From the IMG/VR virus record IMGVR_UViG_2563366854_000002, positions 1 to 25,932 of that record: 25,932 nt of DNA; one strand, 5' to 3'. Below the pieces are notes generated by a model, which was not told the origin of the DNA, searched no databases, and saw nothing but the letters and a program-made list of their open reading frames with translations. Origin of the DNA: a virus (lineage: Duplodnaviria; Heunggongvirae; Uroviricota; Caudoviricetes). Shown here piece after piece: positions 1 through 21,486 of this stretch. The first letter of the stretch is position 1, and the number at the start of each line of letters is the position of its first letter. A program made the translations under genes and the position numbers.

Positions 1-1053
1 TTACGGGGTAATGCCAACCGCTGCCGCCACTTTGTCGCCACTTGGCAGCGTTGCCAGAGGATTGAAACGGAGCGCCGTTTCCAGATGATCCGGTGCCAGA
101 TGTGCGTAACGCATAGTCATTTTTATATCGTGGTGTCCGAGAATTTTTTGTAAGGCCAGAATGTTTCCACCCGACATCATGAAGTGCGCCGCAAACGTAT
201 GGCGCAGAACGTGTGTGAGTTGACCGCGAGGGAGCACGATAGACGTTTTTTCCATCACGGATAAAAATTGAAAATAGCAGTCTGTGAAGAAATTGAACCC
301 ATCAAGCGCCATGATCTCTTCGTAAAGCTCTTTACTGATAGGGATGCTTCTGTTTTTCTTCCCCTTCGTTCTGACAAAGGTAATTCGGTATTTGGTCACC
401 TGTGAGCGGGTAAGATTTACGGCTTCACGCCAGCGTGCGCCTGTGCTTAAGCATATCTTAACTACCAGTGCCAGAATTGGGTCCTGACGTTTGCAATCAG
501 CCAGCAATTCAACAATCTGCTCATGGGTAAGCCATGCCATCTCTTTTTCTGCGATGGTGAATTTTCGCATGTTCTCCAGTGGGTTCGGATACGACCATTC
601 GCCCAGACGGGATAGTTCGCTAAAAACACTACTTAGATAGCTTTGCTCCAGGTTAATGGTGACCGGGCTTGCTCCTTTCTTCCATTTCTCGCTGAAGTAG
701 ATCTCGCCTGTCAGGCGTTTATCTCGATAGTGGGCAAACATTTTAGAGGTGAGATCGGTTGCAAGAGGATTGCCCAGAGCGTCAACCATCAACAGCAATT
801 TGTCATAGACATGCTGCCCAGCTGTCAGAGATTTACCATGTAGTTTGAACCATAGCTCAACCACGTCTTTCAGTGTTCGACGATCCACTGATTCACCCAG
901 CCAGGGCTTTGCTTCGGTTTCTTCCATCGTGTGGCGCTCAAAAGCCAGTGCTTCGCCTTTGGTGACGAATTGTTTACGCACACGACGCCCACTTCGTCCG
1001 GCGGGGTAACATTCGCAAAGCCATTTCCCAGTGGTGAGTTTTCGTACTGCCAT
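1..1053 (-). CDS. int: Phage tyrosine integrase (P2 Int-like), 350 aa from ATG at 1051-1053
   Basis: ORF translation has the C-terminal tyrosine-recombinase region (ARWREA...HVLRHTFAAHFMMSGGNILALQKILGHHDIKMTMRYAHL); start chosen at MAVRKLTTGKW with GGAGGG 8 nt upstream; the longer 1..1209 ORF lacks an SD. Confidence 0.9.
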   Translation of the reverse strand: MAVRKLTTGKWLCECYPAGRSGRRVRKQFVTKGEALAFERHTMEETEAKPWLGESVDRRTLKDVVELWFKLHGKSLTAGQHVYDKLLLMVDALGNPLATDLTSKMFAHYRDKRLTGEIYFSEKWKKGASPVTINLEQSYLSSVFSELSRLGEWSYPNPLENMRKFTIAEKEMAWLTHEQIVELLADCKRQDPILALVVKICLSTGARWREAVNLTRSQVTKYRITFVRTKGKKNRSIPISKELYEEIMALDGFNFFTDCYFQFLSVMEKTSIVLPRGQLTHVLRHTFAAHFMMSGGNILALQKILGHHDIKMTMRYAHLAPDHLETALRFNPLATLPSGDKVAAAVGITP

Positions 1054-1241
1054 AAAAAATGCCCTCCAGTAGAGAGCATTTTCACTGTATGTATAACCAG
1101 TGTCAATGTATGAAATCCTACGACCATACATCTCACTGAAGCCATAATTAAGTTGGCTATTCTTTTTGCTATGTGAGCATGTAACTTTTGCGGTTAACCT
1201 GCGGCTCATTTTTATTTTAGACGCAGATATAAAAGCAAAAG

Positions 1242-1433
1242 TTATCGTGAGTTTTTAGTACAGATTTTTTTGGATTTACTAATAGTTCCATCATTGCAAA
1301 CGAATTTGCCATCTGAGGTACAGTGAGAAACACCTCCCTTTTTCCCTGAGCAGGGATAATTTCTAGCATAGGTAGTTAGTGGGTTTAATAACAAAGAACA
1401 TGACAAAACCACAAAAAATACCTTACCAAGCAT
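1242..1433 (-). CDS. Small secreted Cys-rich peptide (63 aa; predicted signal peptide, 4 Cys in the ~40-aa mature part), unknown function
   Basis: Strong SD GGGAGG 5 nt upstream of ATG, placed at the CI stop codon; hydrophobic N-terminus [23 protein letters not shown]; AT-rich (20 G+C in the 60 nt of line 1261). Confidence 0.6.
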
Positions 1434-1448
1434 AGTTTCCTCCCGGTA

Positions 1449-2018
1449 CTATTTAACATACTTGACTGTTAAACTTATAATTTTACCAATTATTTCAATG
1501 TCTTCTATCTTGCATTCGAAGGCTCTGTTTCCACCCTCGACGAAGATTCTTCCACCGGGTAAACGAGTAATGTCACGGATCGTTATTTCGCCATCAATAC
1601 TTATTACCCATTTACCATCACGTATATCATCAAATTCTTTATCACAAATAAATTCAGAATTGTTATCTGTGATGACAAAAGGTTTTTTAAACGTAGAGGG
1701 TAGAAATCCCTTATCAAAAATATAAAAACCGTCTTTCTGCAATGCTCCATCAGACAATAAATATTTTTCTACTTCTATAGTATTTGTATTTGCTGATGCT
1801 TGCTTTGAACCATGCCCTGTTGTTAGCCAATTAAGCGAGGTGCCCGTTTCAAGGGCGCACTGGATTACCCAATCTGCTGGAAAAATATCACGCATATAGC
1901 GCGTTGCCATGGTGCTCTTAGAAACACCTAAATGATCACATAGAGCCTGACGGGTACCGAACCCATATGCTTCAACTAAACGTTCTATGGCTTTCTTACC
2001 GCCGCTATTGAAATCCAC
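1449..2018 (-). CDS. cI: Phage CI-type repressor (HTH plus C-terminal domain), 186 CI-like; start uncertain (GTG at 2018 with GGAGGA upstream, or GTG at 2105)
   Basis: Translation contains AIERLVEAYGFGTRQALCDHLGVSKSTMATRYMRD (HTH region) and lies divergent to apl and upstream of int, as in 186-like phages; the 2018 start gives ~189 aa. Confidence 0.75.
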   Translation of the reverse strand: MDFNSGGKKAIERLVEAYGFGTRQALCDHLGVSKSTMATRYMRDIFPADWVIQCALETGTSLNWLTTGHGSKQASANTNTIEVEKYLLSDGALQKDGFYIFDKGFLPSTFKKPFVITDNNSEFICDKEFDDIRDGKWVISIDGEITIRDITRLPGGRIFVEGGNRAFECKIEDIEIIGKIISLTVKYVK

Positions 2019-2163
2019 AAGTCCTCCAAAGAAATCCAAAATTCGTTGACAGATTCCAAAAGCGATCTTAAAGTTGAACCAGAAGTGTTCTTTTGGAGCC
2101 TTCACTACTAATCACGACAAACAACGGCTCGCCACAAGCCATATCTAGAAGGAATGTTGCCTT
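2019..2163. promoter_or_regulatory. Lysis-lysogeny switch region between cI and apl (promoters/operators not resolved)
   Basis: Position between divergently oriented repressor and apl/cox-like genes; no specific -10/-35 confidently assigned. Confidence 0.35.
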
Positions 2164-2367
2164 ATGACACCTAACATTTCAATTACTCTGAATACACCAC
2201 ATGTCACAATCGAACGTTATAGCGAACTGACTGGCCTTTCTATTGATACGATTAACGACATGTTGGCTGATGGCCGACTACCTCGTCATCGTCTTCGTAA
2301 AGACAAAAAACGTGAAAAGGTAATGATTAACCTGGCTGCTCTGACTGTTGATGCTTTGTCTGCTTAA
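2164..2367 (+). CDS. apl: Apl/Cox-like excisionase and switch regulator (67 aa, HTH)
   Basis: ATG with AGGAA upstream; small HTH protein ([24 protein letters not shown]) as first gene of the rightward early operon, opposite cI. Confidence 0.75.
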
Positions 2368-2431
2368 TAGACGTCTATTTTCGCAATAAGACGCTGAGTT
2401 CGATTTTGCGATAAGTTCGGAGTTGAAAACC

Positions 2432-2941
2432 ATGTTTGATTACCAAGTTTCCAAACATCCACATTTTGATGAAGCCTGTCGTGCATTCGCACTGCGCCAC
2501 AATCTGGTGCAACTGGCAGAACGTGCGGGCATGAATGTGCAGATTCTGCGGAACAAGCTGAACCCAGCTCAACCTCATTTATTAACCGCACCAGAAATCT
2601 GGCTGCTTACCGATCTGACTGAAGATTCAACGTTGGTAGATGGTTTTCTGGCACAGATTCATTGTCTGCCATGTGTACCGATTAATGAGGTAGCAAAAGA
2701 GAAACTGCCGCATTACGTCATGAGCGCAACTGCAGAGATCGGGCGTGTTGCAGCAGGTGCGGTATCTGGTGATGTAAAAACTAGTGCCGGTCGTCGTGAT
2801 GCTATCAGCAGCATTAACTCTGTAACACGACTGATGGCGCTGGCTGCTGTTTCATTGCAGGCCCGTTTACAGGCTAATCCTGCGATGGCGAGTGCAGTTG
2901 ATACCGTGACTGGCCTCGGTGCTTCATTCGGTTTGCTGTGA
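2432..2941 (+). CDS. cII: Phage 186-type CII regulatory protein (169 aa)
   Basis: Translation [45 protein letters not shown]... matches my recollection of the 186 CII family; ATG at 2432 with GGAG upstream (the track start at 2423 is TTG). Confidence 0.85.
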
Positions 2942-2948
2942 GGTGCTT

Positions 2949-3245
2949 ATGCTGACGAAAGAACCATCATTTGCATCGCTGCTGGTAAAACAAAGCCCGG
3001 CAATGCACTACGGTCACGGCTGGATCACGGGTGAGGATGGAAAACGCTGGCATCCATGTCATTCACAAGATGAATTGCTGTCTGAATTGACCACGAGGAA
3101 ACGGAGAAAGTCCAAATGTATGCGGCAGAAAGTGAAGTGGTTTATCAGTTTCGTTACAGAGGGGAGAGTTATTCAGTACCTGAAGATGATTTGCTCTGTT
3201 GCTATCCGTCATTGTCGGGCGATGGCAGTTACTTTTTCACGTTAA
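2949..3245 (+). CDS. Hypothetical early protein (98 aa as an ORF; C-terminal third looks low-complexity and may be non-coding)
   Basis: ATG at 2949 with GAGGTG upstream; the N-terminal half MLTKEPSFASLLVKQSPAMHYGHGWITGEDGKRWHPC looks protein-like; overlaps the next ORF in another frame. Confidence 0.4.
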   Translation: MLTKEPSFASLLVKQSPAMHYGHGWITGEDGKRWHPCHSQDELLSELTTRKRRKSKCMRQKVKWFISFVTEGRVIQYLKMICSVAIRHCRAMAVTFSR

Positions 3246-3340
3246 AGGATGGGACGTTTTTACGGGGAGAGCAGGTTAAAGAGACGATACGAAAAAATGT
3301 ATCTCCTCTTGAGCGTTACCGTAAGAACAAAGAACGATAG
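3116..3340 (+). CDS. Hypothetical early protein (74 aa)
   Basis: ATG at 3116 with GGAG 9 nt upstream; protein-like composition; overlaps the 3' part of the 2949..3245 ORF in a different frame. Confidence 0.5.
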   Translation: MYAAESEVVYQFRYRGESYSVPEDDLLCCYPSLSGDGSYFFTLKDGTFLRGEQVKETIRKNVSPLERYRKNKER

Positions 3341-3362
3341 CTGCGTTTGGGGGATATGAAGT

Positions 3363-7847: not shown

Positions 7848-8081
7848 ATGCGCATTGAAATAATGATCGATAAAGAGCAGAAGATTAGCCAGTCTACCCT
7901 GGACGCCCTTGAATCCGAGCTTTACCGTAATTTGCGCCCTCTGTATCCCAAAACAGCAATTCGTATCCGTAAGGGCAGCGCCAATGGCGTTGAGCTGAGC
8001 GGGTTAAAACTGGATGAAGACAAAAAGCGAGTGATGGAAATAATGCAGCAGGTCTGGGAGGACGATAGCTGGCTGCATTAA
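7848..8081 (+). CDS. DinI-family protein (77 aa)
   Basis: Translation MRIEIMIDKEQKISQSTLDALESELYRNL...MEIMQQVWEDDSWL resembles DinI (N-terminal MRIE..., C-terminal acidic W-containing tail); ATG at 7848 with GAGGTGG upstream. Confidence 0.8.
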   Translation: MRIEIMIDKEQKISQSTLDALESELYRNLRPLYPKTAIRIRKGSANGVELSGLKLDEDKKRVMEIMQQVWEDDSWLH

Positions 8082-8089
8082 GAAACATT

Positions 8090-8120
8090 GTAGGCGTCAG
8101 AACTTGATTCTGACGCCTAC
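8090..8120. terminator. Perfect 13-bp inverted repeat hairpin (gtaggcgtcagaa / ttctgacgcctac) at the boundary between phage core and cargo
   Basis: Read directly; lies between the convergent dinI-like gene (+) and the three-gene operon (-); no strong T-run. Confidence 0.4.
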
Positions 8121-8176
8121 GAGGTTGAACAACGAGTAAGGCGAGGCGTTAGGTGAAGTAACTCCTTATAAGCCAT

Positions 8177-8860
8177 CTATGATTGAAGGGTGACTTTTTT
8201 TAACGTATCAAAAACGATTTTCGTAAACTCATTCTCATTTCTAACATCAATATAAGCAAGGCCGCTATTGGTGATCTTGAGCTTACCGGAATATTCTAAT
8301 GAATTAACAGAGCAAACAAGCCTGTCAATTCTTATTTTTTTACCCTCTAATTCTTCTTTATAATACTTCCTAAGATCATTGCTGCCAATTATTTGCATTT
8401 TAGCTGTGGCGTAATCAGAAACTCTAACCCTTGAAATATCAAGTTGTGTTAAATTGATATTTACACTTGAAGATATTTCATTAAGCCAGTCTATAGGGTT
8501 TATGTCAATTTCTTCCAAACTAACACCTAAGCCAAGATTTTTTACCAAAGCCTGCGAAAAAGGCTTTAAAGTTCTGGGTGGGTTAGTAATCTGCATTACA
8601 GGAAGAGAGTCTAAAGCCACGCTAAAATTTGTGGTGCGATATTCGATTCTTTCAACGGTAGTTTCGCTTCCGTCAAAGCTTAATATTTTATCATGATAAA
8701 CAATACGCTCGACAAAGCGACCATTTGCAAAATCATGGCGTATTTTATCAAAAATGAACCCTTTCCCTTTATCCTCTGTAAAAGAATCAAGAGAAAGACG
8801 TCTAACGGCTGTTTCAAACTCAAGCCGTATGTTTAACTTAAGCCATTTAACCTTTTTCAT
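8177..8860 (-). CDS. Cargo operon gene 3: hypothetical protein (227 aa), no family recognised
   Basis: ATG at 8858-8860 with GAGGTGA upstream; overlaps gene 2 by 14 nt; AT-rich. Confidence 0.75.
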   Translation of the reverse strand: MKKVKWLKLNIRLEFETAVRRLSLDSFTEDKGKGFIFDKIRHDFANGRFVERIVYHDKILSFDGSETTVERIEYRTTNFSVALDSLPVMQITNPPRTLKPFSQALVKNLGLGVSLEEIDINPIDWLNEISSSVNINLTQLDISRVRVSDYATAKMQIIGSNDLRKYYKEELEGKKIRIDRLVCSVNSLEYSGKLKITNSGLAYIDVRNENEFTKIVFDTLKKVTLQS

Positions 8861-9926
8861 CTTCGTTCACCTCTGATCCTATTATTATATTATAGGCATT
8901 TTCAGCGGCGGACTCAATTAATTCACTAATATGTTTTTTCTCTTGTGCCGTTGCCGCGCGAATGGTTACATTGAAACCGTCTTCTTTTTGATTGTTTATA
9001 CCTTTAATTTGATAGGCAAAGTCACAGCATTTTTCTGAGTCTTTGAAAAATGCTTCGACGTTGATTCTGTCTCCAATTCCACTTGTCGGCTTTGAAGACC
9101 ATGCAATACGCCCGATATAATAACCTTTCTCATGTAGTTGAGAAAATATAGCTGAACTATTTACCCCTTCACCATTAAGGACGGCTTTCTTAACAAATCC
9201 GGTATCAATAGTTTCTTCCTTGTCTTCATCCTCACTAGCATCAGTACTGCGATTTAATTCGACTTTTGTTACGTCATCAGTCTCATAACCGCGTAGACCA
9301 TTCATTAATTCCTGAAAAAACTGACTTCGCAATGTAGGATCAGTTATTGCTAGTAATGATATTTCGAAGCGCTCGATAGGTTCGGACTTGATTTTAGATA
9401 GCTCGTTTTGCAAGCTCTCAATAACTTTTTTTGCCTCGGGGTTTTGAGGCATACGTACTTCAACTTTGTCAGCTCCAGGGCGAAGTTCTATTATAACATT
9501 CCGCTTGTCGATCTGACGTAATGCAGTTTTAGACAGGTCTATTTCTTCATATTTGTATTCTACTGTAAGCGAGCCATCTTTTTTAGCTACAATATTCAGG
9601 CTTTGACCTTTACTAGGGGAGCATGTTTTTTTTAGTGCTTCAGCAGCACTTTTTAATTCGGCCTGATTTGTTGAGGTTTGGAAGCTCACACTAGTAGTGC
9701 TTTCCCTTGGGTCATATGTTTTGACCAGTTTTTTTATGTGTTCTAATTCATTAAATCCGTGAGGAAGTTTGGATATTTCCTCGATTAGTATTTCCTTGTC
9801 GAGTTCTGGTGATAAAAACACACCTCGATTCAACAATAATTCATGCAACTTTGCAGCGGTTATCCTTTTATGATGTAATGCATCATAAATATTTTTATCA
9901 GTTGCGAAATATAGTTTTTTAGCCAT
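8847..9926 (-). CDS. Cargo operon gene 2: hypothetical protein (359 aa) with an acidic linker between two regions, no family recognised
   Basis: ATG at 9924-9926 with GGAG upstream; TAATG stop/start overlap with gene 1; AT-rich. Confidence 0.75.
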   Translation of the reverse strand: MAKKLYFATDKNIYDALHHKRITAAKLHELLLNRGVFLSPELDKEILIEEISKLPHGFNELEHIKKLVKTYDPRESTTSVSFQTSTNQAELKSAAEALKKTCSPSKGQSLNIVAKKDGSLTVEYKYEEIDLSKTALRQIDKRNVIIELRPGADKVEVRMPQNPEAKKVIESLQNELSKIKSEPIERFEISLLAITDPTLRSQFFQELMNGLRGYETDDVTKVELNRSTDASEDEDKEETIDTGFVKKAVLNGEGVNSSAIFSQLHEKGYYIGRIAWSSKPTSGIGDRINVEAFFKDSEKCCDFAYQIKGINNQKEDGFNVTIRAATAQEKKHISELIESAAENAYNIIIGSEVNEDEKG

Positions 9927-10927
9927 TATCGTTGCTCCATGCCGATTTGTTCAAGATTATATTCAACAACAATTTTGTCTGTCTTGTCGAAGTCAATTTT
10001 AAGAAAAAGTCTTTCATCCTCGCCTAAGAGCCAGTCTGTGCTGTATTTCTTTTTCGCTCTTTCAAAATGATGAATGGCATTTTCATTTGGGTGAATGTGA
10101 CAATGGCGTAATACGATTGGTTTACCTTCGGTTAATATCTGATAAGTTGATAACATATCAAAGAAGTAAACGAATTCGTCTACTGAATCCCCCGGTTGAT
10201 TGTAATAAACAACATATCCCTCAGGGTTTTTATCCCTGAGCCAACTGAAAGCCTCATGCTTTATTATAATGTATGGTGATGTTAATAATTCAATTGTTGC
10301 AGGTGTTGTCTGATTAATAGGGTGCTTTATTCTTGTTAGGGAAAGATCTGGATAATAATATGTGAACTTATCAGGTTGAGGAAGTTTGCCTGAACCAATT
10401 AACTTAGTTATGTCAGAAGATATGTTTATCAAATCTGATATTTTATAAGGGTCAAGCAAATGTAGTTTGATGTTTGGAGGGCAATTTATAGATGAGTGAT
10501 CTAATTTTTTTGTAATATTCTCATAGAAGTCTTTATCATATAAATTATCATGGTTATATAAGAATAATAACCCTCTTACGTTATAACCTAAAGAATCATC
10601 ATGAACATATTTCAATCGCCATTCTTCACTGACATTTGCACACTCGGTAGCTAAAGCAAGCGATGTTAAAGCTCCCTCGACTATTTTTTTCCCAATAGTA
10701 CCTTCTGCATAGCTTTTGAGGTCTGTGTTGAGATAGACCATTTCCTCCTCATATGGATCTATGTAGAAAAATACAACATCGCTTGGATGTGTTTTCTTGG
10801 AATGAGCCTCTTGGCAACAATCCCAATTCATGTCCGCTCTAGCGGCACGATCCCATTTGAACACTGAGAAAATATCATCAGAAATCTTACCCGCGACTCG
10901 TTGTATAGCCGAAGTCTCTCCACCCAT
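9926..10927 (-). CDS. Cargo operon gene 1: hypothetical protein (333 aa), no family recognised; has an R-x4-H spacing (RHCHIH) near the C-terminus
   Basis: ATG at 10925-10927 with AAGGAG 7 nt upstream; first gene of a three-gene minus-strand operon; AT-rich. Confidence 0.75.
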   Translation of the reverse strand: MGGETSAIQRVAGKISDDIFSVFKWDRAARADMNWDCCQEAHSKKTHPSDVVFFYIDPYEEEMVYLNTDLKSYAEGTIGKKIVEGALTSLALATECANVSEEWRLKYVHDDSLGYNVRGLLFLYNHDNLYDKDFYENITKKLDHSSINCPPNIKLHLLDPYKISDLINISSDITKLIGSGKLPQPDKFTYYYPDLSLTRIKHPINQTTPATIELLTSPYIIIKHEAFSWLRDKNPEGYVVYYNQPGDSVDEFVYFFDMLSTYQILTEGKPIVLRHCHIHPNENAIHHFERAKKKYSTDWLLGEDERLFLKIDFDKTDKIVVEYNLEQIGMEQR

Positions 10928-11077
10928 TTCAATCTCGCTCCTTTACAATTGCTGTGGCAATCTGCCTGAAAATCCATCTGACTTGATGAGTAATCTAACC
11001 ATATGGTTCGTATGCGTTTGTTGCATGACTATAGCGCATGAAAATGAATGATCGCAAAAGGATCGTTTTTGCTCAGT

Positions 11078-11104
11078 CCCGCCAGTTCTGGCGGGCTTTT
11101 ACTT
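11078..11104 (+). terminator. GC hairpin (cccgcca-gttc-tggcggg) followed by cttttactt, just left of cos
   Basis: Read directly; may be a terminator or part of the cos-flanking packaging region. Confidence 0.35.
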
Positions 11105-11145
11105 ATGTCATGCAGGTGCATGAAAACCACTACACAAAGCGGGCA

Positions 11146-11164
11146 GGCGTGGCGGGGATACGAG
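11146..11164. other. cos: Putative cos site (19-nt cohesive-end sequence GGCGTGGCGGGGATACGAG)
   Basis: Matches the P2 cohesive end as I recall it (GGCGAGGCGGGGAAAGCAC) at 15 of 19 positions, followed by GCGCGCGCTG as in the P2 left end; lies between the A-side region and portal Q, where cos is in P2-like prophages. Confidence 0.6.
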
Positions 11165-11232
11165 CGCGCGCTGTGCGTGGTTGTAAAAGGAAATTGTTTT
11201 CGGTATAACCACTTCCATTAGAAGGAGAATTT

Positions 11233-11478
11233 ATGAAAATTTTTGCAATAGTCATTACATGTATGCTGGCATCGATTGCAGGATTATGGCTTTATATGGA
11301 TCCTGGTTTTGATTCTATTGTTGCATTTTTGGCTGCAGTTAGCGCTTTAGCTGGATTACTTATCACTACAAAAAATAAATATAATTCTATGAGCCAATCA
11401 GTTGGTGATAATTCAACTGCTGTCCAGGCTAGAGGTGATATTAAAATTGATTGTATAAATACAGGTGATAAAAAATAA
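11233..11478 (+). CDS. Small membrane protein (81 aa, two predicted TM helices) with a C-terminal GDNSTAVQARGD motif
   Basis: ATG with AGGAG 7 nt upstream; hydrophobic segments IFAIVITCMLASIAGLWLY and IVAFLAAVSALAGLLITT; AT-rich. Confidence 0.7.
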   Translation: MKIFAIVITCMLASIAGLWLYMDPGFDSIVAFLAAVSALAGLLITTKNKYNSMSQSVGDNSTAVQARGDIKIDCINTGDKK

Positions 11479-11487
11479 GGAGGATAT

Positions 11488-12345
11488 ATGTTTAGTGATA
11501 AGCAAAAGCAACAAATAGGTAATAATTCGTATGCAATTCAAGCTGGAAATAATGTAAATGTTTCAGGGATGTCGTTTTCCGAGGTTAGAGAACTATTCAA
11601 CATTCTCTTCGAAAATCAGTTTCCAAAATTGAAAGATGTTGCTTATGCTGCAGCTCAAGAGAATGCAAAAGATTTTGAAGAGCGTGTCGTTTCGGATTTA
11701 ACAAAAAACGTTGATAGATTGATTATTGATAAATTTTGCGATCCGGACGTTCAGGCTACATTGACTGAGGCATTAAAGTCATCAGCCAGGAAGGGAAAGA
11801 AAGCTAATATGGATGTGCTTTCTCAGTTGTTAGTTGAACGAGTCTCCAATAACAATGACGATTTTAGAGATATAGTTTTAACGGAGGCAGTTACCGTCGT
11901 TCCCAAGTTAACACAGCAACAAATATCACTTATAACGATAGTTTTTCTTCTCAAGAATGTTGAGATCAAAGACCCTGTTAATGGTGTTCGATTGGATTTG
12001 TTGGAGCACAATTTTAGAAACTTTGAATCAATGTATACTAATGGGTTTAATTTGTCTCAAGCCCAGATATATCACATTCAATATGCAGGGGCTTGTTCAT
12101 GGAATACTTTTTTAGGGATGGATGTTGAAGACTATTTTATGAGTAAATATCCGACTGATATAAAAGATAAGAGTGCATATATTTCAAATCTTAAGTTAGT
12201 TGCCCCTCATGTGTCTGCATTTTTAGAAAAATTTTCAAAGAGCAACTATCAAGGAATTGAATTAACAAGTGTAGGGCAAGCAATTGCTCTGGCTGTTTTT
12301 TCAAGATACGTAGGAAGATTGGATTATAATATTTGGTTAAAGTAG
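11488..12345 (+). CDS. Hypothetical protein (285 aa), no family recognised; N-terminal GNNSYAIQAGNN motif resembles the C-terminus of the upstream small protein
   Basis: ATG with AAGGAGG 6 nt upstream; 9 nt downstream of the 81-aa gene; AT-rich. Confidence 0.75.
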   Translation: MFSDKQKQQIGNNSYAIQAGNNVNVSGMSFSEVRELFNILFENQFPKLKDVAYAAAQENAKDFEERVVSDLTKNVDRLIIDKFCDPDVQATLTEALKSSARKGKKANMDVLSQLLVERVSNNNDDFRDIVLTEAVTVVPKLTQQQISLITIVFLLKNVEIKDPVNGVRLDLLEHNFRNFESMYTNGFNLSQAQIYHIQYAGACSWNTFLGMDVEDYFMSKYPTDIKDKSAYISNLKLVAPHVSAFLEKFSKSNYQGIELTSVGQAIALAVFSRYVGRLDYNIWLK

Positions 12346-12370
12346 GGCATTATTTGCCCTACTTTATTAT
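12341..12370. terminator. Hairpin (agtagggc-attattt-gccctact) plus ttattat, a bidirectional terminator between the 285-aa gene and portal Q
   Basis: Read directly; overlaps the stop codon of the 285-aa gene and lies 3' of the convergent Q gene. Confidence 0.5.
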
Positions 12371-13398
12371 AATTCATATGGTTGGAAAGAAATTATTTCA
12401 TCACTCAACCATTCATTAATTTCTTTAATTCGCTTTTGCAGCGGTATCAATTCGTTACGGACAAACACCTTACTCGCCTTTTCCACATCCCCAAATCCCC
12501 CAACATTACTCGGCATAATCCCCATCATCTGCGGCGGAACGCGGTGTGCAGCCATCATGTCGTCTCGGCTCACGTTCTTAATGTTCAGAAACTCATCCTT
12601 TGCCGCTACCTCTGACAGCGGGATTATCTGAATCCCGTCCTTTTTGCCGTTGGGTGAATACATAAACAGGTTGCGGAAGTTGCCCGGTCCTTTAGCGCTT
12701 TTCATGGCCTGGCGGATGTTGTTCACGTCCTCCTGGTTCTGCGCGGCGTCGGTCATATACATGATGAACCCTGCATGACTGCCATTGATGTAGTATTTAC
12801 GCCGGAACAGCGTAGCGGACTCGTTCAGCAAGGCGGACGGAATGGCGGACAGATATTCCGGCAGGCCGTAAATTTCCTGGTTCAGGTCCGGCTCCATCAG
12901 GTGAAAGATACTGCCTTTAGTGAACTCGTAGGGCTGCGTGGTTAGACCGTATTGCACAAACCAGTAGGTGTCTAAGTCGATCCCGCGGCGGGTGTATTTC
13001 GCCAGCGATGGCTCCAGCGACAGAATGCCGCCGAGCCGGTTCGTTCGTTTCTCCAGATAAGCGTTACCAAACACCAAATAGTCCTGCACAAAGCGGCTGA
13101 ATGCCTGCTGGCTCAGTAATGGATGTGGGATAAATGTACTGGTCAGAATGTTGCGTTTGACGGCAATCGGTGAGCTGTGATGTACGGCGGCGCGATAGGT
13201 GCGAGCCAGCCCATCAAAACTGACCGGCGGTTCATACCATCTGTCCATCTGTACGCATTCCACATAGTCCAGCAGCTCGCGGCGGTCCAGTACCGGGATC
13301 GGATCGCCAAAGCTGAAAGCCTCGGCACTTACGCCTGTGTTTTTCGGTGCCGTAGCTTCTGTTGGCGTTGTGCTGGTTAAGGCTTCGGGTTCACTCAT
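12367..13398 (-). CDS. Q: Phage portal protein (P2 gpQ-like), 343 aa from ATG at 13396-13398
   Basis: Size and position next to the terminase large subunit; TGATG overlap with the P stop; the track start at 13401 is TTG. Confidence 0.9.
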   Translation of the reverse strand: MSEPEALTSTTPTEATAPKNTGVSAEAFSFGDPIPVLDRRELLDYVECVQMDRWYEPPVSFDGLARTYRAAVHHSSPIAVKRNILTSTFIPHPLLSQQAFSRFVQDYLVFGNAYLEKRTNRLGGILSLEPSLAKYTRRGIDLDTYWFVQYGLTTQPYEFTKGSIFHLMEPDLNQEIYGLPEYLSAIPSALLNESATLFRRKYYINGSHAGFIMYMTDAAQNQEDVNNIRQAMKSAKGPGNFRNLFMYSPNGKKDGIQIIPLSEVAAKDEFLNIKNVSRDDMMAAHRVPPQMMGIMPSNVGGFGDVEKASKVFVRNELIPLQKRIKEINEWLSDEIISFQPYEL

Positions 13399-17218: not shown

Positions 17219-17869
17219 ATGAGCCTGAGTCCCGCACGGCAGCATCGCCTGCGCGTTCAGGCTGAACAGGCCGCCCGTGAGGGCGGCAGCGTTCGCCACG
17301 CGTCGGGCTATGACCTGATGCTGCTGCAACTGGCGGAAGACCGCCGCCGTCTCAAGGGCGTTCAGTCCACGGTCAAAAAAGCGGAAATCAAGGTGGAGCT
17401 GCTGCCGAAGTACGCCGCCTGGGCGGAGGGTGTCCTGGCTGCCGGAGGCGCTCAACAGGATGACGTGCTGATGTACGTGATGCTGTGGCGCATTGATGCC
17501 GGAGATTATGCCGGGGCGCTGGAGATAGGGCGTCATGCCCTGCGTCATGGCTGGGTGATGCCGCTGGGTAACCGCAACGTGCAGACCGTGCTGGCAGAGG
17601 AAATGGCAGACGCAGCCCAGAGTGCAATGCTTGCCGCCACCGGGTTTGATGCCGATCTGTTGCTGCAGACGCTGGAGCTGACAGACGGTCTGGATATGCC
17701 GGACCAGTCACGGGCGCGTCTGCATAAAGCGATTGGCGCTGTCCTGAGTGAAAGCAATCCGGCTTCCGCCCTTAATCATCTCAACCATGCGTTACAGCTC
17801 GATCCCCGCTGTGGCGTGAAAAAAGACAAACAGCAGCTGGAGCGCAGACTGCGCAATGACAGCCGCTGA
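17219..17869 (+). CDS. M: Terminase endonuclease (small) subunit, P2 gpM-like (216 aa)
   Basis: Position after N and P2 synteny. Confidence 0.85.
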   Translation: MSLSPARQHRLRVQAEQAAREGGSVRHASGYDLMLLQLAEDRRRLKGVQSTVKKAEIKVELLPKYAAWAEGVLAAGGAQQDDVLMYVMLWRIDAGDYAGALEIGRHALRHGWVMPLGNRNVQTVLAEEMADAAQSAMLAATGFDADLLLQTLELTDGLDMPDQSRARLHKAIGAVLSESNPASALNHLNHALQLDPRCGVKKDKQQLERRLRNDSR

Positions 17870-17964
17870 CAGAACGTGCCCCCGCGCACGGGCGGCACGG
17901 GGTGGCGAAAGGCACTACCACATCAAAACCCCGTCCACCGCCCTCTATTTCAGGAGAAAGCAGC

Positions 17965-18429
17965 ATGAAGTTTGTTGCGCCAGAACAGGCACCGGAACAG
18001 GCGGAAATCATCAGAAATACGCCGTTCTGGCCTGATGTGGACCTGTCGGAGTTTCGCAGTGTCATGCGCACTGACGGCACAGTGACGCAGCCGCGTTTAA
18101 AGCAGGTTGCGCTGTCGGCAATTTCGGAGGTCAACGCAGAGCTGTATGAGTTTCGCAGACGCCAGCAGATGCTGGGGTATGCCTCGCTGGCAGAAGTCCC
18201 GGCGGAACAACTGGACGGCAAAAGCGAGCGCATTCAGCACTATTTCAACGCGGTTTACTGCTGGGCACGCGCCATGCTCAACGAACGTTACCAGGACTAT
18301 GACGCCACGGCATCCGGTGCGAAGCGAGGCGAGGAACTGGCGGAAGCAAGCGGTGATTTATGGCGTGACGCCCGCTGGGCCATCAGCCGGGTGCAGGATG
18401 CGCCGCACTGCACAGTGGAGCTTATCTGA
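17965..18429 (+). CDS. L: Head completion/stabilisation protein (P2 gpL-like, 154 aa from ATG at 17965)
   Basis: AGGAG 8 nt upstream of the ATG at 17965; the longer track ORF begins in the intergenic region. Confidence 0.85.
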   Translation: MKFVAPEQAPEQAEIIRNTPFWPDVDLSEFRSVMRTDGTVTQPRLKQVALSAISEVNAELYEFRRRQQMLGYASLAEVPAEQLDGKSERIQHYFNAVYCWARAMLNERYQDYDATASGAKRGEELAEASGDLWRDARWAISRVQDAPHCTVELI

Positions 18430-18632
18430 TGAAAGTGCGTGCGCATCAGTATGACACGGTGGACGCACTTTGCTGGCGTCATTACGGGCGCACGCAGGGT
18501 GTCACGGAGCAGGTACTGAAGGCAAATCCGGGGCTTGCCGAATACGGCCCCTTTTTACCTCACGGGCTGCAGGTGGAGCTGCCGGACATTCCGACAACCA
18601 CCACCGTGCAGACCGTCCAGCTATGGGACTGA
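18429..18632 (+). CDS. X: Tail protein X (P2 gpX-like, 67 aa)
   Basis: Translation MKVRAHQYDTVDALCWRHYGRTQGVTEQVLKANPGLAEYGPFLPHGLQVELPD fits the gpX family. Confidence 0.85.
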   Translation: MKVRAHQYDTVDALCWRHYGRTQGVTEQVLKANPGLAEYGPFLPHGLQVELPDIPTTTTVQTVQLWD

Positions 18633-18635
18633 ATT

Positions 18636-18851
18636 ATGACGCTTGAGCGAATCAGCGCCTTTATCACGTATTGCATCGCCGTCGTGCTGGCCTGGCTGGG
18701 CGATTTGTCCATCAAGGATGCCTCAACGCTGGGCGGCCTGATGATTGGTGTGCTGATGCTGGCTATCAACTGGTACTACAAACACAAAGCCTACCAGCTT
18801 CTGCGCGACGGGCAGATCTCGCGGGAGGATTATGAATCCATCAATCGTTAA
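18636..18851 (+). CDS. Holin (71 aa, membrane)
   Basis: Small protein with hydrophobic helices and a charged C-terminus, immediately upstream of the endolysin. Confidence 0.75.
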   Translation: MTLERISAFITYCIAVVLAWLGDLSIKDASTLGGLMIGVLMLAINWYYKHKAYQLLRDGQISREDYESINR

Positions 18852-19347
18852 ACGTTGCCTTGTCGGGACCGTGCTGGCTATTGCTGCCACTCTGCCGGGT
18901 TTTCAGCAGCTTCACACCTCCGTAGAGGGGCTGAAACTGATTGCCGATTACGAAGGCTGTCGTCTGCAGCCGTATCAGTGCAGCGCGGGTGTCTGGACCG
19001 ACGGCATTGGTAATACATCGGGCGTCATTCCCGGCAAAACAATCACGGAACGACAGGCAGCAGAAGGGCTGATCTCCAACGTGCTGCGTGTGGAGCGGGC
19101 ACTGGAAAGGTGTGTAAAGCAACAGCCGCCACAGAAGGTGTATGACGCTACGGTGTCGTTTGCCTTCAACGTGGGGACGGGCAATGCCTGTAGTTCCACG
19201 CTGGTGAAATTGCTCAATCAGCGGCGCTGGGCGGATGCGTGCCGACAGTTGCCGCGCTGGGTTTATGTGAAAGGTGTTTTTAATCAGGGGCTGGATAACC
19301 GCCGTGCGCGGGAGATGGCCTGGTGCCTTAAAGGAGCTGGACTATGA
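18832..19347 (+). CDS. Endolysin, lysozyme type with an N-terminal signal-anchor-release (SAR)-like segment (171 aa)
   Basis: Hydrophobic N-terminus CLVGTVLAIAATLPG, then E-x8-C/D-x5-T spacing (YEGCRLQPYQCSAGVWTDGIGNT) typical of T4-type lysozymes. Confidence 0.8.
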   Translation: MNPSIVKRCLVGTVLAIAATLPGFQQLHTSVEGLKLIADYEGCRLQPYQCSAGVWTDGIGNTSGVIPGKTITERQAAEGLISNVLRVERALERCVKQQPPQKVYDATVSFAFNVGTGNACSSTLVKLLNQRRWADACRQLPRWVYVKGVFNQGLDNRRAREMAWCLKGAGL

Positions 19348-19772
19348 CACGTGCGCTGGCGGTAGTGGCGGCGCTGGCACTCGTTGCGCTGGGCTGGCAG
19401 TCGTGGTGGCTTAACAGCGCCAGCCACACCATCGAAACGCAGCGCGCGGCGCTGAAAAGTAAAGCGCACGAACTAACGAAGAAAAATAGTCAGCTGATCA
19501 GTCTGTCCATTCTGGCTGAAACCAACAATCGGGAGCAGGCGCGGCTCTACGCCGAAGCAGAACAGACCAGTGCGCTGCTGAGACAACGACAACACCGGAT
19601 CGAGGAACTGAAACGTGAGAACGAGGATTTACGCCGCTGGGCTGATACTCCTTTGCCTGCTGACATTATCCGGCTGCGGGAACGTCCGACACTCACCGGA
19701 GGTGCAGCTTACCGTCAGTGGTTGTCCGCGGGTGACGCCGTGTCGGCTGGATCAGGCAACGCCGCGCACTAA
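19344..19772 (+). CDS. lysB: Inner-membrane spanin (LysB/Rz-like, 142 aa)
   Basis: N-terminal TM segment plus coiled-coil-like remainder; AAGGAG upstream; follows the endolysin. Confidence 0.7.
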   Translation: MTRALAVVAALALVALGWQSWWLNSASHTIETQRAALKSKAHELTKKNSQLISLSILAETNNREQARLYAEAEQTSALLRQRQHRIEELKRENEDLRRWADTPLPADIIRLRERPTLTGGAAYRQWLSAGDAVSAGSGNAAH

Positions 19773-20299: not shown

Positions 20300-20738
20300 A
20301 CTGCAGAAGGTGGACGACTGGCTTAGTGCCTTACTGGCGAATCTGGAACCAGTCGCAAGAAGCCGCATGATGCGCCAGCTGGCGCAGGAACTGCGCCGGA
20401 CACAGCAGCAGAATATCAGGATGCAGCGCAATCCAGATGGCAGCAGTTATGAACCGCGCAAGGTCACGGCGCGCAGTAAAAAAGGCCGCATCAAACGTCA
20501 GATGTTTGCAAAGCTGCGCACCACCAAATACCTGAAAACTGCCGCCAGCGCCGATTCTGCCAGCGTGCAGTTTGAAGGTAAGGTGCAGCGCATTGCCCGC
20601 GTTCACCATTATGGCCTGCGCGATCGCGTCAGCCGCAAAGGACCGGAAGTGCGTTACGCAGAGCGTCGTTTGTTGGGTCTTAATGGTGAGTCTTACGTTC
20701 TAACTCTTGATATATTGAATAGATTCCTTCTGTCTTGA
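20292..20738 (+). CDS. S: Tail completion protein S (P2 gpS-like, 148 aa) with a replaced C-terminal ~18 aa encoded by AT-rich inserted DNA
   Basis: Conserved gpS body (..IARVHHYGLRDRVSRKGPEVRYAERRLLGL) then an unrelated tail NGESYVLTLDILNRFLLS where the GC content drops. Confidence 0.8.
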   Translation: MAELQKVDDWLSALLANLEPVARSRMMRQLAQELRRTQQQNIRMQRNPDGSSYEPRKVTARSKKGRIKRQMFAKLRTTKYLKTAASADSASVQFEGKVQRIARVHHYGLRDRVSRKGPEVRYAERRLLGLNGESYVLTLDILNRFLLS

Positions 20739-21486
20739 ATTCACCATATGCCCAATGAATTGCATTTTTTTGTTCAGTCAGAATATATTTCCTAACTTTT
20801 TTAGAATAGTGAATGGTCAGTATAAAACCCAAAGAAATCCATAATAGAATAAATATGGTTGTTGGGGCAAAGGAATAGATAAAGAATTTGTCTTTAACGA
20901 AATTCTTGACTTCTTCATCAATGTAAGCATTCCCTTCATCAGTGGTTAGTAGTTTACAAAGAATTTCTTTATGTTCGATAGTTAATGATTTGTACTTCTC
21001 TGTACTGGCAGAGGATGACTCTTCGCAATCATCCTTTGATATTTCCCAATCAGGAGTGGTTAATATTGTAGCTGCAGTCGCCAGTTTTTTTGACATATAA
21101 AATGATTCACCGGATTTTATCCAATAAAGCAATGTGCTATTTGGTGGGGTTCTAATGGCTTGGATGAAAACTGGACCAAAAATATAAATTGCACACAAAA
21201 AAAGAAGTGAAAAGAGAACCGTGATTGATTTTTCAGCCCATGTGATAGTAGGCAGCCTTTTTAATGATATTCGTATAAGAAAAAAATTCAATATAAACGC
21301 AGGTATTCCTGATTTTTTCAAAATTACATCATGAGATTTTCTATATTTGAATAGTGCTCTTATAACTATCGTCACCAAAGTTATAACAGCTCCAATAATG
21401 GAAATCCATGCGGCAAGTGCCGCTGCCGGGGTGTTTAAAAATTCAGCATTAAATATATTAGAACTTATTGGATTCATAACACTCAT
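20680..21486 (-). CDS. Polytopic membrane protein (268 aa), unknown function, in an AT-rich insert between S and V
   Basis: ATG at 21484-21486 with AGGTGGA upstream; several hydrophobic helices; 19 G+C in the 60 nt of line 21181; opposite strand to the flanking late genes. Confidence 0.65.
   Translation of the reverse strand: MSVMNPISSNIFNAEFLNTPAAALAAWISIIGAVITLVTIVIRALFKYRKSHDVILKKSGIPAFILNFFLIRISLKRLPTITWAEKSITVLFSLLFLCAIYIFGPVFIQAIRTPPNSTLLYWIKSGESFYMSKKLATAATILTTPDWEISKDDCEESSSASTEKYKSLTIEHKEILCKLLTTDEGNAYIDEEVKNFVKDKFFIYSFAPTTIFILLWISLGFILTIHYSKKVRKYILTEQKNAIHWAYGEFKTEGIYSIYQELERKTHH

Follow-up and report, generated by a model that had tools for sequence, protein, structure and literature searches.

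The three-gene cargo operon of a P2-like prophage is the 3HP anti-phage system, related by sequence to GAPS4 and with predicted RdgC-like subunits

The stretch of DNA analysed here (the window) is 25,932 nucleotides (nt) long and comprises positions 1–25,932 of the IMG/VR virus record IMGVR_UViG_2563366854_000002, assigned to the Caudoviricetes. In the slot held by tin and old in phage P2, it carries a compact operon of three minus-strand genes, which raises the question of whether these genes form a new anti-phage system and how their products might act. The original prediction, made from the sequence alone, described the operon as a candidate novel anti-phage system. An anti-phage system it is, but not a novel one, since its proteins are identical to those of the published clone pFR109 and are recognised by PADLOC.

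All three window proteins are string-identical (100%) to the proteins of pFR109 (‘hp + hp + hp’, from E. coli E1114, in Table S2A of Rousset et al.), and gave full-length matches to the PADLOC models Hp1 (PDLC03004, E = 1e-239), Hp2 (PDLC03005, E = 3e-248) and Hp3 (PDLC03006, E = 2e-157). Positions 10954–11170 of the window, containing the promoter region and the cohesive-end site (cos), are identical to part of the printed pFR109 insert, and the full protein set of the locus, both neighbouring genes included, is listed in Table S5 of the same study. Under its native promoter, pFR109 protected E. coli against phage P1, the only phage of a panel of eight for which 3HP gave protection (Rousset et al. 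2022, Cell Host Microbe, PMC9122126). The trio is the known 3HP system (Rst_3HP in DefenseFinder; Hp1/Hp2/Hp3 in PADLOC) in an exact copy of the validated construct, and it shows the features that define the system: matches to the three models, an adjacent operon in the order Hp1–Hp2–Hp3, and identity to that construct. The proteins, the upstream DNA that was checked and the genomic slot (the P2 gpA–gpQ hotspot) are all the same; no difference in sequence was found, and the second cargo module that the window has beyond cos is not needed by the cloned construct.

The three-hypothetical-protein system of P2 hotspots that the original prediction half remembered is 3HP itself, as the identity to pFR109 establishes. 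The operon belongs to an already named defence family, by both PADLOC and pFR109, and the claim of novelty is refuted because the locus is an exact copy of a named and validated system. Like old and tin of P2, the operon lies next to cos and serves the prophage-encoded exclusion of other phages; no family named Old or Tin matched any of the three proteins at E ≤ 1 in the PADLOC, Pfam and NCBIfam scans, which did not include a direct comparison with P2 Old or Tin. In a 2024 survey, Rst_3HP was still among the systems without a recognisable domain, and no paper on its mechanism was found in the literature that could be searched.

In an alignment of 81 homologues, the Hp1 residues H47, P48, D50, D69, L70 and K71 are invariant (H47-P-S-D50 … D69-L-K71), and E4 is conserved in 80. 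The pattern contains the D … (D/E)-x-K catalytic residues that characterise PD-(D/E)xK enzymes, and the evidence points to Hp1 being a PD-(D/E)xK nuclease, by its N-terminal motif, that is homologous to the GAPS4a nuclease of the GAPS4 defence system. Database naming agrees: the precomputed Pfam family of Hp1 is PF26115, its UniRef relatives are called ‘GAPS4 PD-(D/E)XK nuclease domain-containing protein’, and the newer RefSeq product name for the identical protein is ‘PD-(D/E)XK nuclease domain-containing protein’. The earlier statement that none of the three proteins has a recognisable signature is therefore wrong for gene 1, given the invariant motif and the RefSeq name. Other searches were less informative: for the three proteins, local Pfam-A gave nothing above its curated cutoffs and PHROGs only families of ‘unknown function’, and a PDB sequence-profile search with the Hp1 alignment returned no meaningful match.

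The original prediction had instead proposed an undescribed system in which gene 1 might encode a HEPN-like RNase, on the basis of an R-x4-H spacing in the sequence LRHCHIH near its C-terminus. The motif is present in the window copy, and the lack of significant local Pfam matches would suit an unfamiliar protein. However, only the arginine of the motif (R274) is conserved, in 75 of the 81 homologues; its histidines all stay below 90%, in contrast to the invariant PD-(D/E)xK residues at the N-terminus, and the system had already been described and validated. The HEPN assignment of gene 1 was ruled out on the histidines, and the reading as a whole is practically untenable.

GAPS4 is a two-gene system. 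The PD-(D/E)xK enzyme GAPS4a carries an HGxD…SxK motif at its N-terminus, of which the Asp is essential, and forms an a2b2 complex with GAPS4b, in which a ring is built from two GAPS4b subunits, each with a helical globular domain on which a nuclease docks; on detecting breaks in DNA, or linear DNA, the complex degrades the DNA of both phage and host, causing abortive infection (Mahata et al., bioRxiv 10.1101/2025.09.07.674715). Escape phages could not be isolated, and the authors identified DNA breaks as the trigger (bioRxiv 10.1101/2025.09.07.674715).

The comparison of 3HP with GAPS4 was based on the NCBIfam models GapS4a (NF047933, cutoff 270 bits) and GapS4b (NF047934, cutoff 300 bits), together with Pfam and UniRef naming. 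The window Hp1 itself gave no match to the GapS4a model at E ≤ 1. Among 61 Hp1-type proteins from diverse trios, 39 matched it (best E = 1.6e-14; in one example over profile positions 13–239 of 302), and the GapS4b model matched 15 of the 61 corresponding Hp2-type proteins (best E = 2.4e-9); besides these two, no family recurred in the NCBIfam scan of either set. Hp1 resembles GAPS4a in having an N-terminal H-x-x-D … x-x-K core at matching positions, D50 of Hp1 corresponding to D49 and D59 in two GAPS4a proteins. The HPxD…DLK motif of Hp1 and the HGxD…SxK motif of GAPS4a have the same spacing and position but differ in two residues (P for G, D for S). Hp2 appears homologous to GAPS4b along nearly its whole length, and the ring-forming GAPS4b with its nuclease-docking helical domain matches the architecture of the Hp2 model. 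Both systems place the nuclease gene first and its partner second, but 3HP has an obligate third gene, Hp3, while GAPS4 works with two; and 3HP as tested acts on P1 only, while GAPS4 homologues protect against many phages (bioRxiv 10.1101/2025.09.07.674715). Because of scores far under both cutoffs, two deviating motif residues and the conserved third gene, 3HP is not counted as a member of GAPS4. Judged by sequence, it is homologous to GAPS4 but lies outside that family, as a three-component sister of the two-gene system. Databases already encode part of the link (PF26115 on Hp1, PF26110 on Hp2, and the UniRef and PGAP names), but none connecting 3HP to GAPS4 was found in the searchable literature, and the GAPS4 preprint does not mention 3HP.

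The predicted structure of Hp2 consists of an N-terminal helical domain (residues about 1–70) followed by a module with the fold of RdgC (about 77–349), while Hp3, basic and fast-evolving, is modelled as an RdgC-fold protein on its own. RdgC ranks first among the structural matches of both models; both have its two-lobed fold, and the secondary-structure elements of Hp3 (1–227) follow the same order as those of Hp2 (77–349). RdgC, the recombination-associated protein of E. coli, is a ring-shaped dimer that encircles DNA (PDB 2OWL), and its fold is shared by the DNA-binding prophage exclusion protein RexA of phage λ and the likewise DNA-binding IML3–CHL4 heterodimer. On the predicted structures, Hp2 and Hp3 would be grouped with RdgC, RexA and IML3–CHL4 at the level of fold, outside the RdgC sequence family. 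Sequence identity to RdgC is only 9%; Hp3 has 227 residues and RdgC 303, so that part of RdgC is missing in Hp3; and RdgC and RexA act without an associated nuclease, whereas 3HP has Hp1. Between Hp2 and Hp3, no sequence similarity was detected by hhalign with either shallow or deep profiles (probability 0.2), and the idea that they are sequence paralogues was rejected on this basis, their likeness being one of fold. No RdgC-named family was found for Hp2 or Hp3 at E ≤ 1 in the Pfam and NCBIfam scans. Hp2 carries PF26110, whose Hp2 relatives are all named ‘hypothetical protein’ at source, while one GenBank record already labels an Hp3 relative ‘RdgC-like’.

To follow the trio across taxa, the Hp1 alignment was used as the query against one genome per species, which yielded 235 loci, of which 80 were kept for open reading frame (ORF) calling and hidden Markov model (HMM) searches. 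The loci come from Gamma- and Betaproteobacteria, Desulfobacterota, Cyanobacteria, Bacteroidota, Verrucomicrobiota, Clostridia, Caldiserica and Patescibacteria. An Hp2 homologue lies directly downstream of Hp1 in 77 of the 80, and an Hp3 homologue comes next in 75 by HMM; one further locus (L009) has a third ORF that the HMM misses because of its divergence, which brings the loci with the full trio to 76. The remaining loci are on contigs that end too early, and the third gene is kept in every untruncated locus examined. Typical stop/start overlaps are -1, -4 and -13 nt. In IMG/VR, 111 viral contigs have an Hp1 relative, and the full trio is present in 75 of the 78 examined. The three genes diverge in step, their pairwise divergences correlating at r = 0.93–0.96. 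The trio is an ancient, obligate three-gene unit.

For the mechanism of 3HP, we hypothesize that a clamp of Hp2 and Hp3 senses DNA ends or DNA damage and licenses the Hp1 DNase, a general model that we consider somewhat favoured. It draws on what is shown: that the trio is 3HP, that Hp1 has a nuclease motif, that GAPS4a and GAPS4b are remote homologues, that RdgC-like folds are predicted and that the trio is obligate; that the proteins form a complex and bind DNA, what triggers them and what the outcome is are what we infer. Hp1 would be a GAPS4a-related DNase effector, docked by analogy with GAPS4 on the N-terminal helical domain of Hp2, whose C-terminal two-lobed RdgC-fold module would build a ring or horseshoe that encircles DNA. 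Hp3 would either complete the Hp2 ring as a heterodimer, as in IML3–CHL4, or form a DNA-loading ring of its own; most economically, an Hp2–Hp3 hetero-ring would be the counterpart of the GAPS4b homodimer ring. During infection, the assembly would detect free ends or DNA that is damaged or aberrant, such as the linear P1 genome before its circularisation, and sensing would license Hp1 to degrade DNA. If host DNA were also cut, as in GAPS4, abortive infection would follow. The more specific version, in which 3HP is a sister lineage of GAPS4 with a PD-(D/E)xK DNase under a heteromeric clamp of two sequence-unrelated RdgC-fold proteins threading onto free DNA ends, is put forward tentatively.

The RdgC-like folds would also suit a mechanism of interference with recombination or replication, in which Hp2–Hp3 rings coat phage DNA and block P1 circularisation or replication, and Hp1 only trims or degrades stalled DNA, so that protection is direct and not abortive. 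RdgC, the top structural match of both proteins, reduces RecA-catalysed strand exchange, and P1 is the sole phage restricted; its linear genome is terminally redundant and must circularise by recombination. However, the nuclease active site is strictly conserved in every trio, which argues that cleavage is central and not accessory, and so does the homology to GAPS4, with its essential catalytic Asp and bulk degradation of DNA. We regard interference as quite improbable.

Hp3 differs from the other two subunits in charge and in rate of evolution. Its isoelectric point is 9.0 (family median 8.3), compared with 5.4 for Hp1 and 5.5 for Hp2, making it the sole basic subunit. Mean pairwise identity is 45% for Hp1, 34% for Hp2 and just 23% for Hp3, in which no more than two positions, both glycines, are over 90% conserved. 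The Hp3 family comprises 704 clusters at 50% identity; among the best 150 of the 704 cluster representatives no fusion was found, all being standalone proteins of ~225 amino acids (aa) or shorter fragments. Such fast evolution, set against the 45% of Hp1, is typical of direct conflict with phage proteins and would fit a toxin–antitoxin-like logic, in which a constitutively dangerous Hp1 nuclease is kept inactive by Hp3 (or by Hp2 and Hp3) until a phage protein titrates or displaces the inhibitor, the RdgC-fold subunits sensing protein and not DNA; candidate triggers would be, for example, a recombination, anti-restriction or DNA-end-binding protein of P1. The narrow P1-only phenotype is easier to reconcile with a protein as trigger than with DNA damage in general, and exclusion by RexA has no strict need for DNA binding. 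Yet the homologous GAPS4 is triggered by DNA breaks and gave no escape phages, and Hp3 is basic, with a DNA-binding fold. A protein trigger seems unlikely to us.

Several observations weigh against the model of a GAPS4-related, DNA-sensing clamp. The distant Hp1-type proteins reach 42 bits among the matches listed, against the 270-bit GapS4a cutoff, and the window Hp2 scores only 23.5 bits with the GapS4b model (cutoff 300 bits; E = 2.2e-5, profile positions 8–329 of 355). The fold match of Hp2 and Hp3 could be convergence on a common TBP-like scaffold, since the two proteins have no mutual sequence similarity and match no RdgC-named family. Protection against P1 only is odd for a generic sensor of DNA breaks, and the case of RexA indicates that exclusion need not require DNA binding by the RdgC-fold protein.

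Discovery, naming and validation of the 3HP system date from 2022, and the window copy sits in the hotspot of the original discovery. Its value now is mechanistic, as three hypothetical proteins become a testable model of a GAPS4a-like DNase with two RdgC-fold subunits. If true, this would give 3HP its first mechanistic assignment, no such statement being present in the searchable papers; and, with λ RexA and GAPS4b as further cases, the RdgC fold would become a recurrent sensor of DNA state in phage exclusion. If 3HP senses DNA breaks like GAPS4, its carriers might be sensitised to quinolones, as reported for GAPS4 (bioRxiv 10.1101/2025.09.07.674715).

In E. coli the 3HP cassette is present in 18 of 5,426 complete genomes, 13 copies being at ≥99% identity and 5 at about 87%; two of the cassettes come from 55-kb plasmid records, one carries an IS1 insertion and one is truncated. 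The two plasmid-typed records (H17 and H18; NZ_CP148585.1 and NZ_CP148400.1, about 55 kb) match the window over 8000–12500 at 100% identity, portal gene included. P2-like elements may thus persist as extrachromosomal phage-plasmids, a state suggested by Rousset et al. for P2-like elements bearing partition systems (PMC9122126).

Table S5B of the same authors also lists, as system 32, variants of Hp1 and Hp2 that are ~95% identical to those of the window, together with a third partner (‘MSQLRLKWMRL…NPPKSVKPF…’) that is genuinely homologous to Hp3 (E = 2.6e-25) but shares only about 20% identity. A cassette of this type was not found in the 18 cassette-bearing complete E. coli genomes, the 78 viral contigs or the PLSDB plasmids; the entry either is confined to draft genomes or is an artefact of the choice of representative. 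The possibility that Hp3 is an exchangeable specificity module was considered and is not supported, as Hp3 identity always scales with that of Hp1 and Hp2.

Beyond P2-like elements, the trio occurs on Vibrio prophage elements and on 13-kb filamentous phages (Tubulavirales) of Pseudomonas, and 3HP relatives occur in Klebsiella prophage genomes of about 40 kb, where only Hp1 was checked. A complete 3HP-type trio occupies positions 485–3252 of one such locus (L084; Pseudomonas phage 54-4, OR621021), at the left end of the 13-kb Pf-type phage beside the repressor and excisionase genes, and is annotated there as ‘nuclease related protein / hypothetical / RdgC-like exonuclease’; systems of the 3HP type are therefore also carried by inoviruses. 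Among the genes that flank the trio in 40 diverse loci are type I and IIG restriction-modification systems, DrmD, BrxH, ZorD-like helicases, PsyrA and RmrA, a defence-island context.

The features of the 3HP locus and the adjoining module are collected in Table 1.

Table 1. Positions of the 3HP operon, its flanking signals and the second cargo module in the window.
Feature	Position	Strand	Remarks
Gene 1, Hp1	9926–10927	-	333 aa; predicted effector
Gene 2, Hp2	8847–9926	-	359 aa; GAPS4b-like subunit
Gene 3, Hp3	8177–8860	-	227 aa; predicted DNA-binding or sensor subunit
Terminator-like hairpin after gene 3, 14-base-pair stem	8090–8120	-	consensus scan; common to the convergent DinI-family gene
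Native upstream region with promoter	10928–11145	-	adjoins gene 1
cos core GGCGTGGCGGGGATACGAG, P2/186-type (presumed)	11146–11164	+	right-hand boundary of the 3HP cassette
Second cargo gene 1	11233–11478	+	81 aa, two predicted transmembrane helices; between cos and portal gpQ
Second cargo gene 2	11488–12345	+	285 aa, LPO_1073/Vpar_1526 family; NCBIfam NF045477, E = 3e-72

The gene layout drawn in the original prediction was reproduced in nearly every detail. The three minus-strand ORFs of 333, 359 and 227 aa have exactly the predicted coordinates; genes 1 and 2 share the TAATG stop/start overlap (1 nt, at 9924–9928), and genes 2 and 3 overlap by 14 nt at 8847–8860 (ATGAAAAAGGTTAA). A Shine-Dalgarno-like sequence precedes each of the three starts (AAGGAG, GGAG and GAGGTG), the AAGGAG lying 9 nt before the ATG of Hp1, and the reading of the genes as a co-translated operon is judged right. 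The G+C counts of 18/60 and 19/60 within the block, and of 31/60 in gene A, were also recovered exactly; overall the three-gene block has a G+C content of 36.4%, compared with 50.9% for the window outside the AT-rich island, which extends to about 12366, past the trio and cos. The trio was also said to run opposite to the flanking phage genes, which holds for the gpA–DinI side but not for gpQ and gpP on the right, which are likewise on the minus strand. Upstream of Hp1, the best sigma-70-like match is TTGCGA-18-TATAGT at 11057–11028, a putative promoter by consensus match only.

The segment 11146–11164 was named cos by reference to the cohesive ends of P2 and 186. The sequence GGCGWGGCGGGGA has one exact match in the window, at this cos core, and the related sequence GGCGAGGCGGGGAAAGCAC is present in P4 clones of Rousset Table S2A. 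In other E. coli genomes, homology to the 3HP cassette stops at about window position 11171. With the cos core where it is and the cassette ending there, the trio fills the slot between the DinI-like gene and cos, and its assignment to the tin/old cargo position is judged right. Between cos and the 3HP promoter region, at 11078–11095 on the plus strand, there is a GC-rich hairpin, CCCGCCAGTTCTGGCGGG, with CTTTTACTTA after it. It is terminator-like on the plus strand, that is, antisense to the operon, and might be an operon insulator or part of the cos-flanking packaging signals.

A RefSeq chromosome that is 100% identical to the window over 8000–12500 has the layout of a P2-like prophage, in the order integrase, CI, CII, Dam, replication endonuclease gpA, DinI-family gene, cargo, portal gpQ, terminase gpP, gpO and gpN. 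The second cargo module corresponds to system 141 in Table S5B of Rousset et al. (‘DUF6358 | Abi_alpha’, 14 occurrences) and is absent from the table of validated systems, S2A (PMC9122126). Nothing significant was found for it in PADLOC, Pfam or the PDB, its PHROGs matches are of ‘unknown function’, and a literature search for ‘LPO_1073’ found nothing. The module moves independently of 3HP in other genomes and is a candidate abortive-infection pair. Since the cos core lies in the middle of the low-G+C island, the hotspot in fact consists of two slots, which cos separates.

A further AT-rich patch (G+C fraction 0.35–0.40) lies at 20680–21486 on the minus strand and contains an ORF of 268 aa, which in a near-identical prophage is annotated as a DUF6216 family protein. 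It is another moron or cargo position, between a virion-morphogenesis gene and baseplate gene V.

Relative to window 17741–19733, the prophage of the E. coli H3 chromosome (L082) has lost about 2 kb, its gpM being truncated and fused to a partial lysC, while the window is intact here. Window 1–3108, from integrase to immunity, is 88–95% identical to H3, 1992–2149 and 3109–3362 are unaligned, and the rest of the alignment is about 99% identical; given this uneven identity along the alignment, the window and H3 prophages are mosaics.

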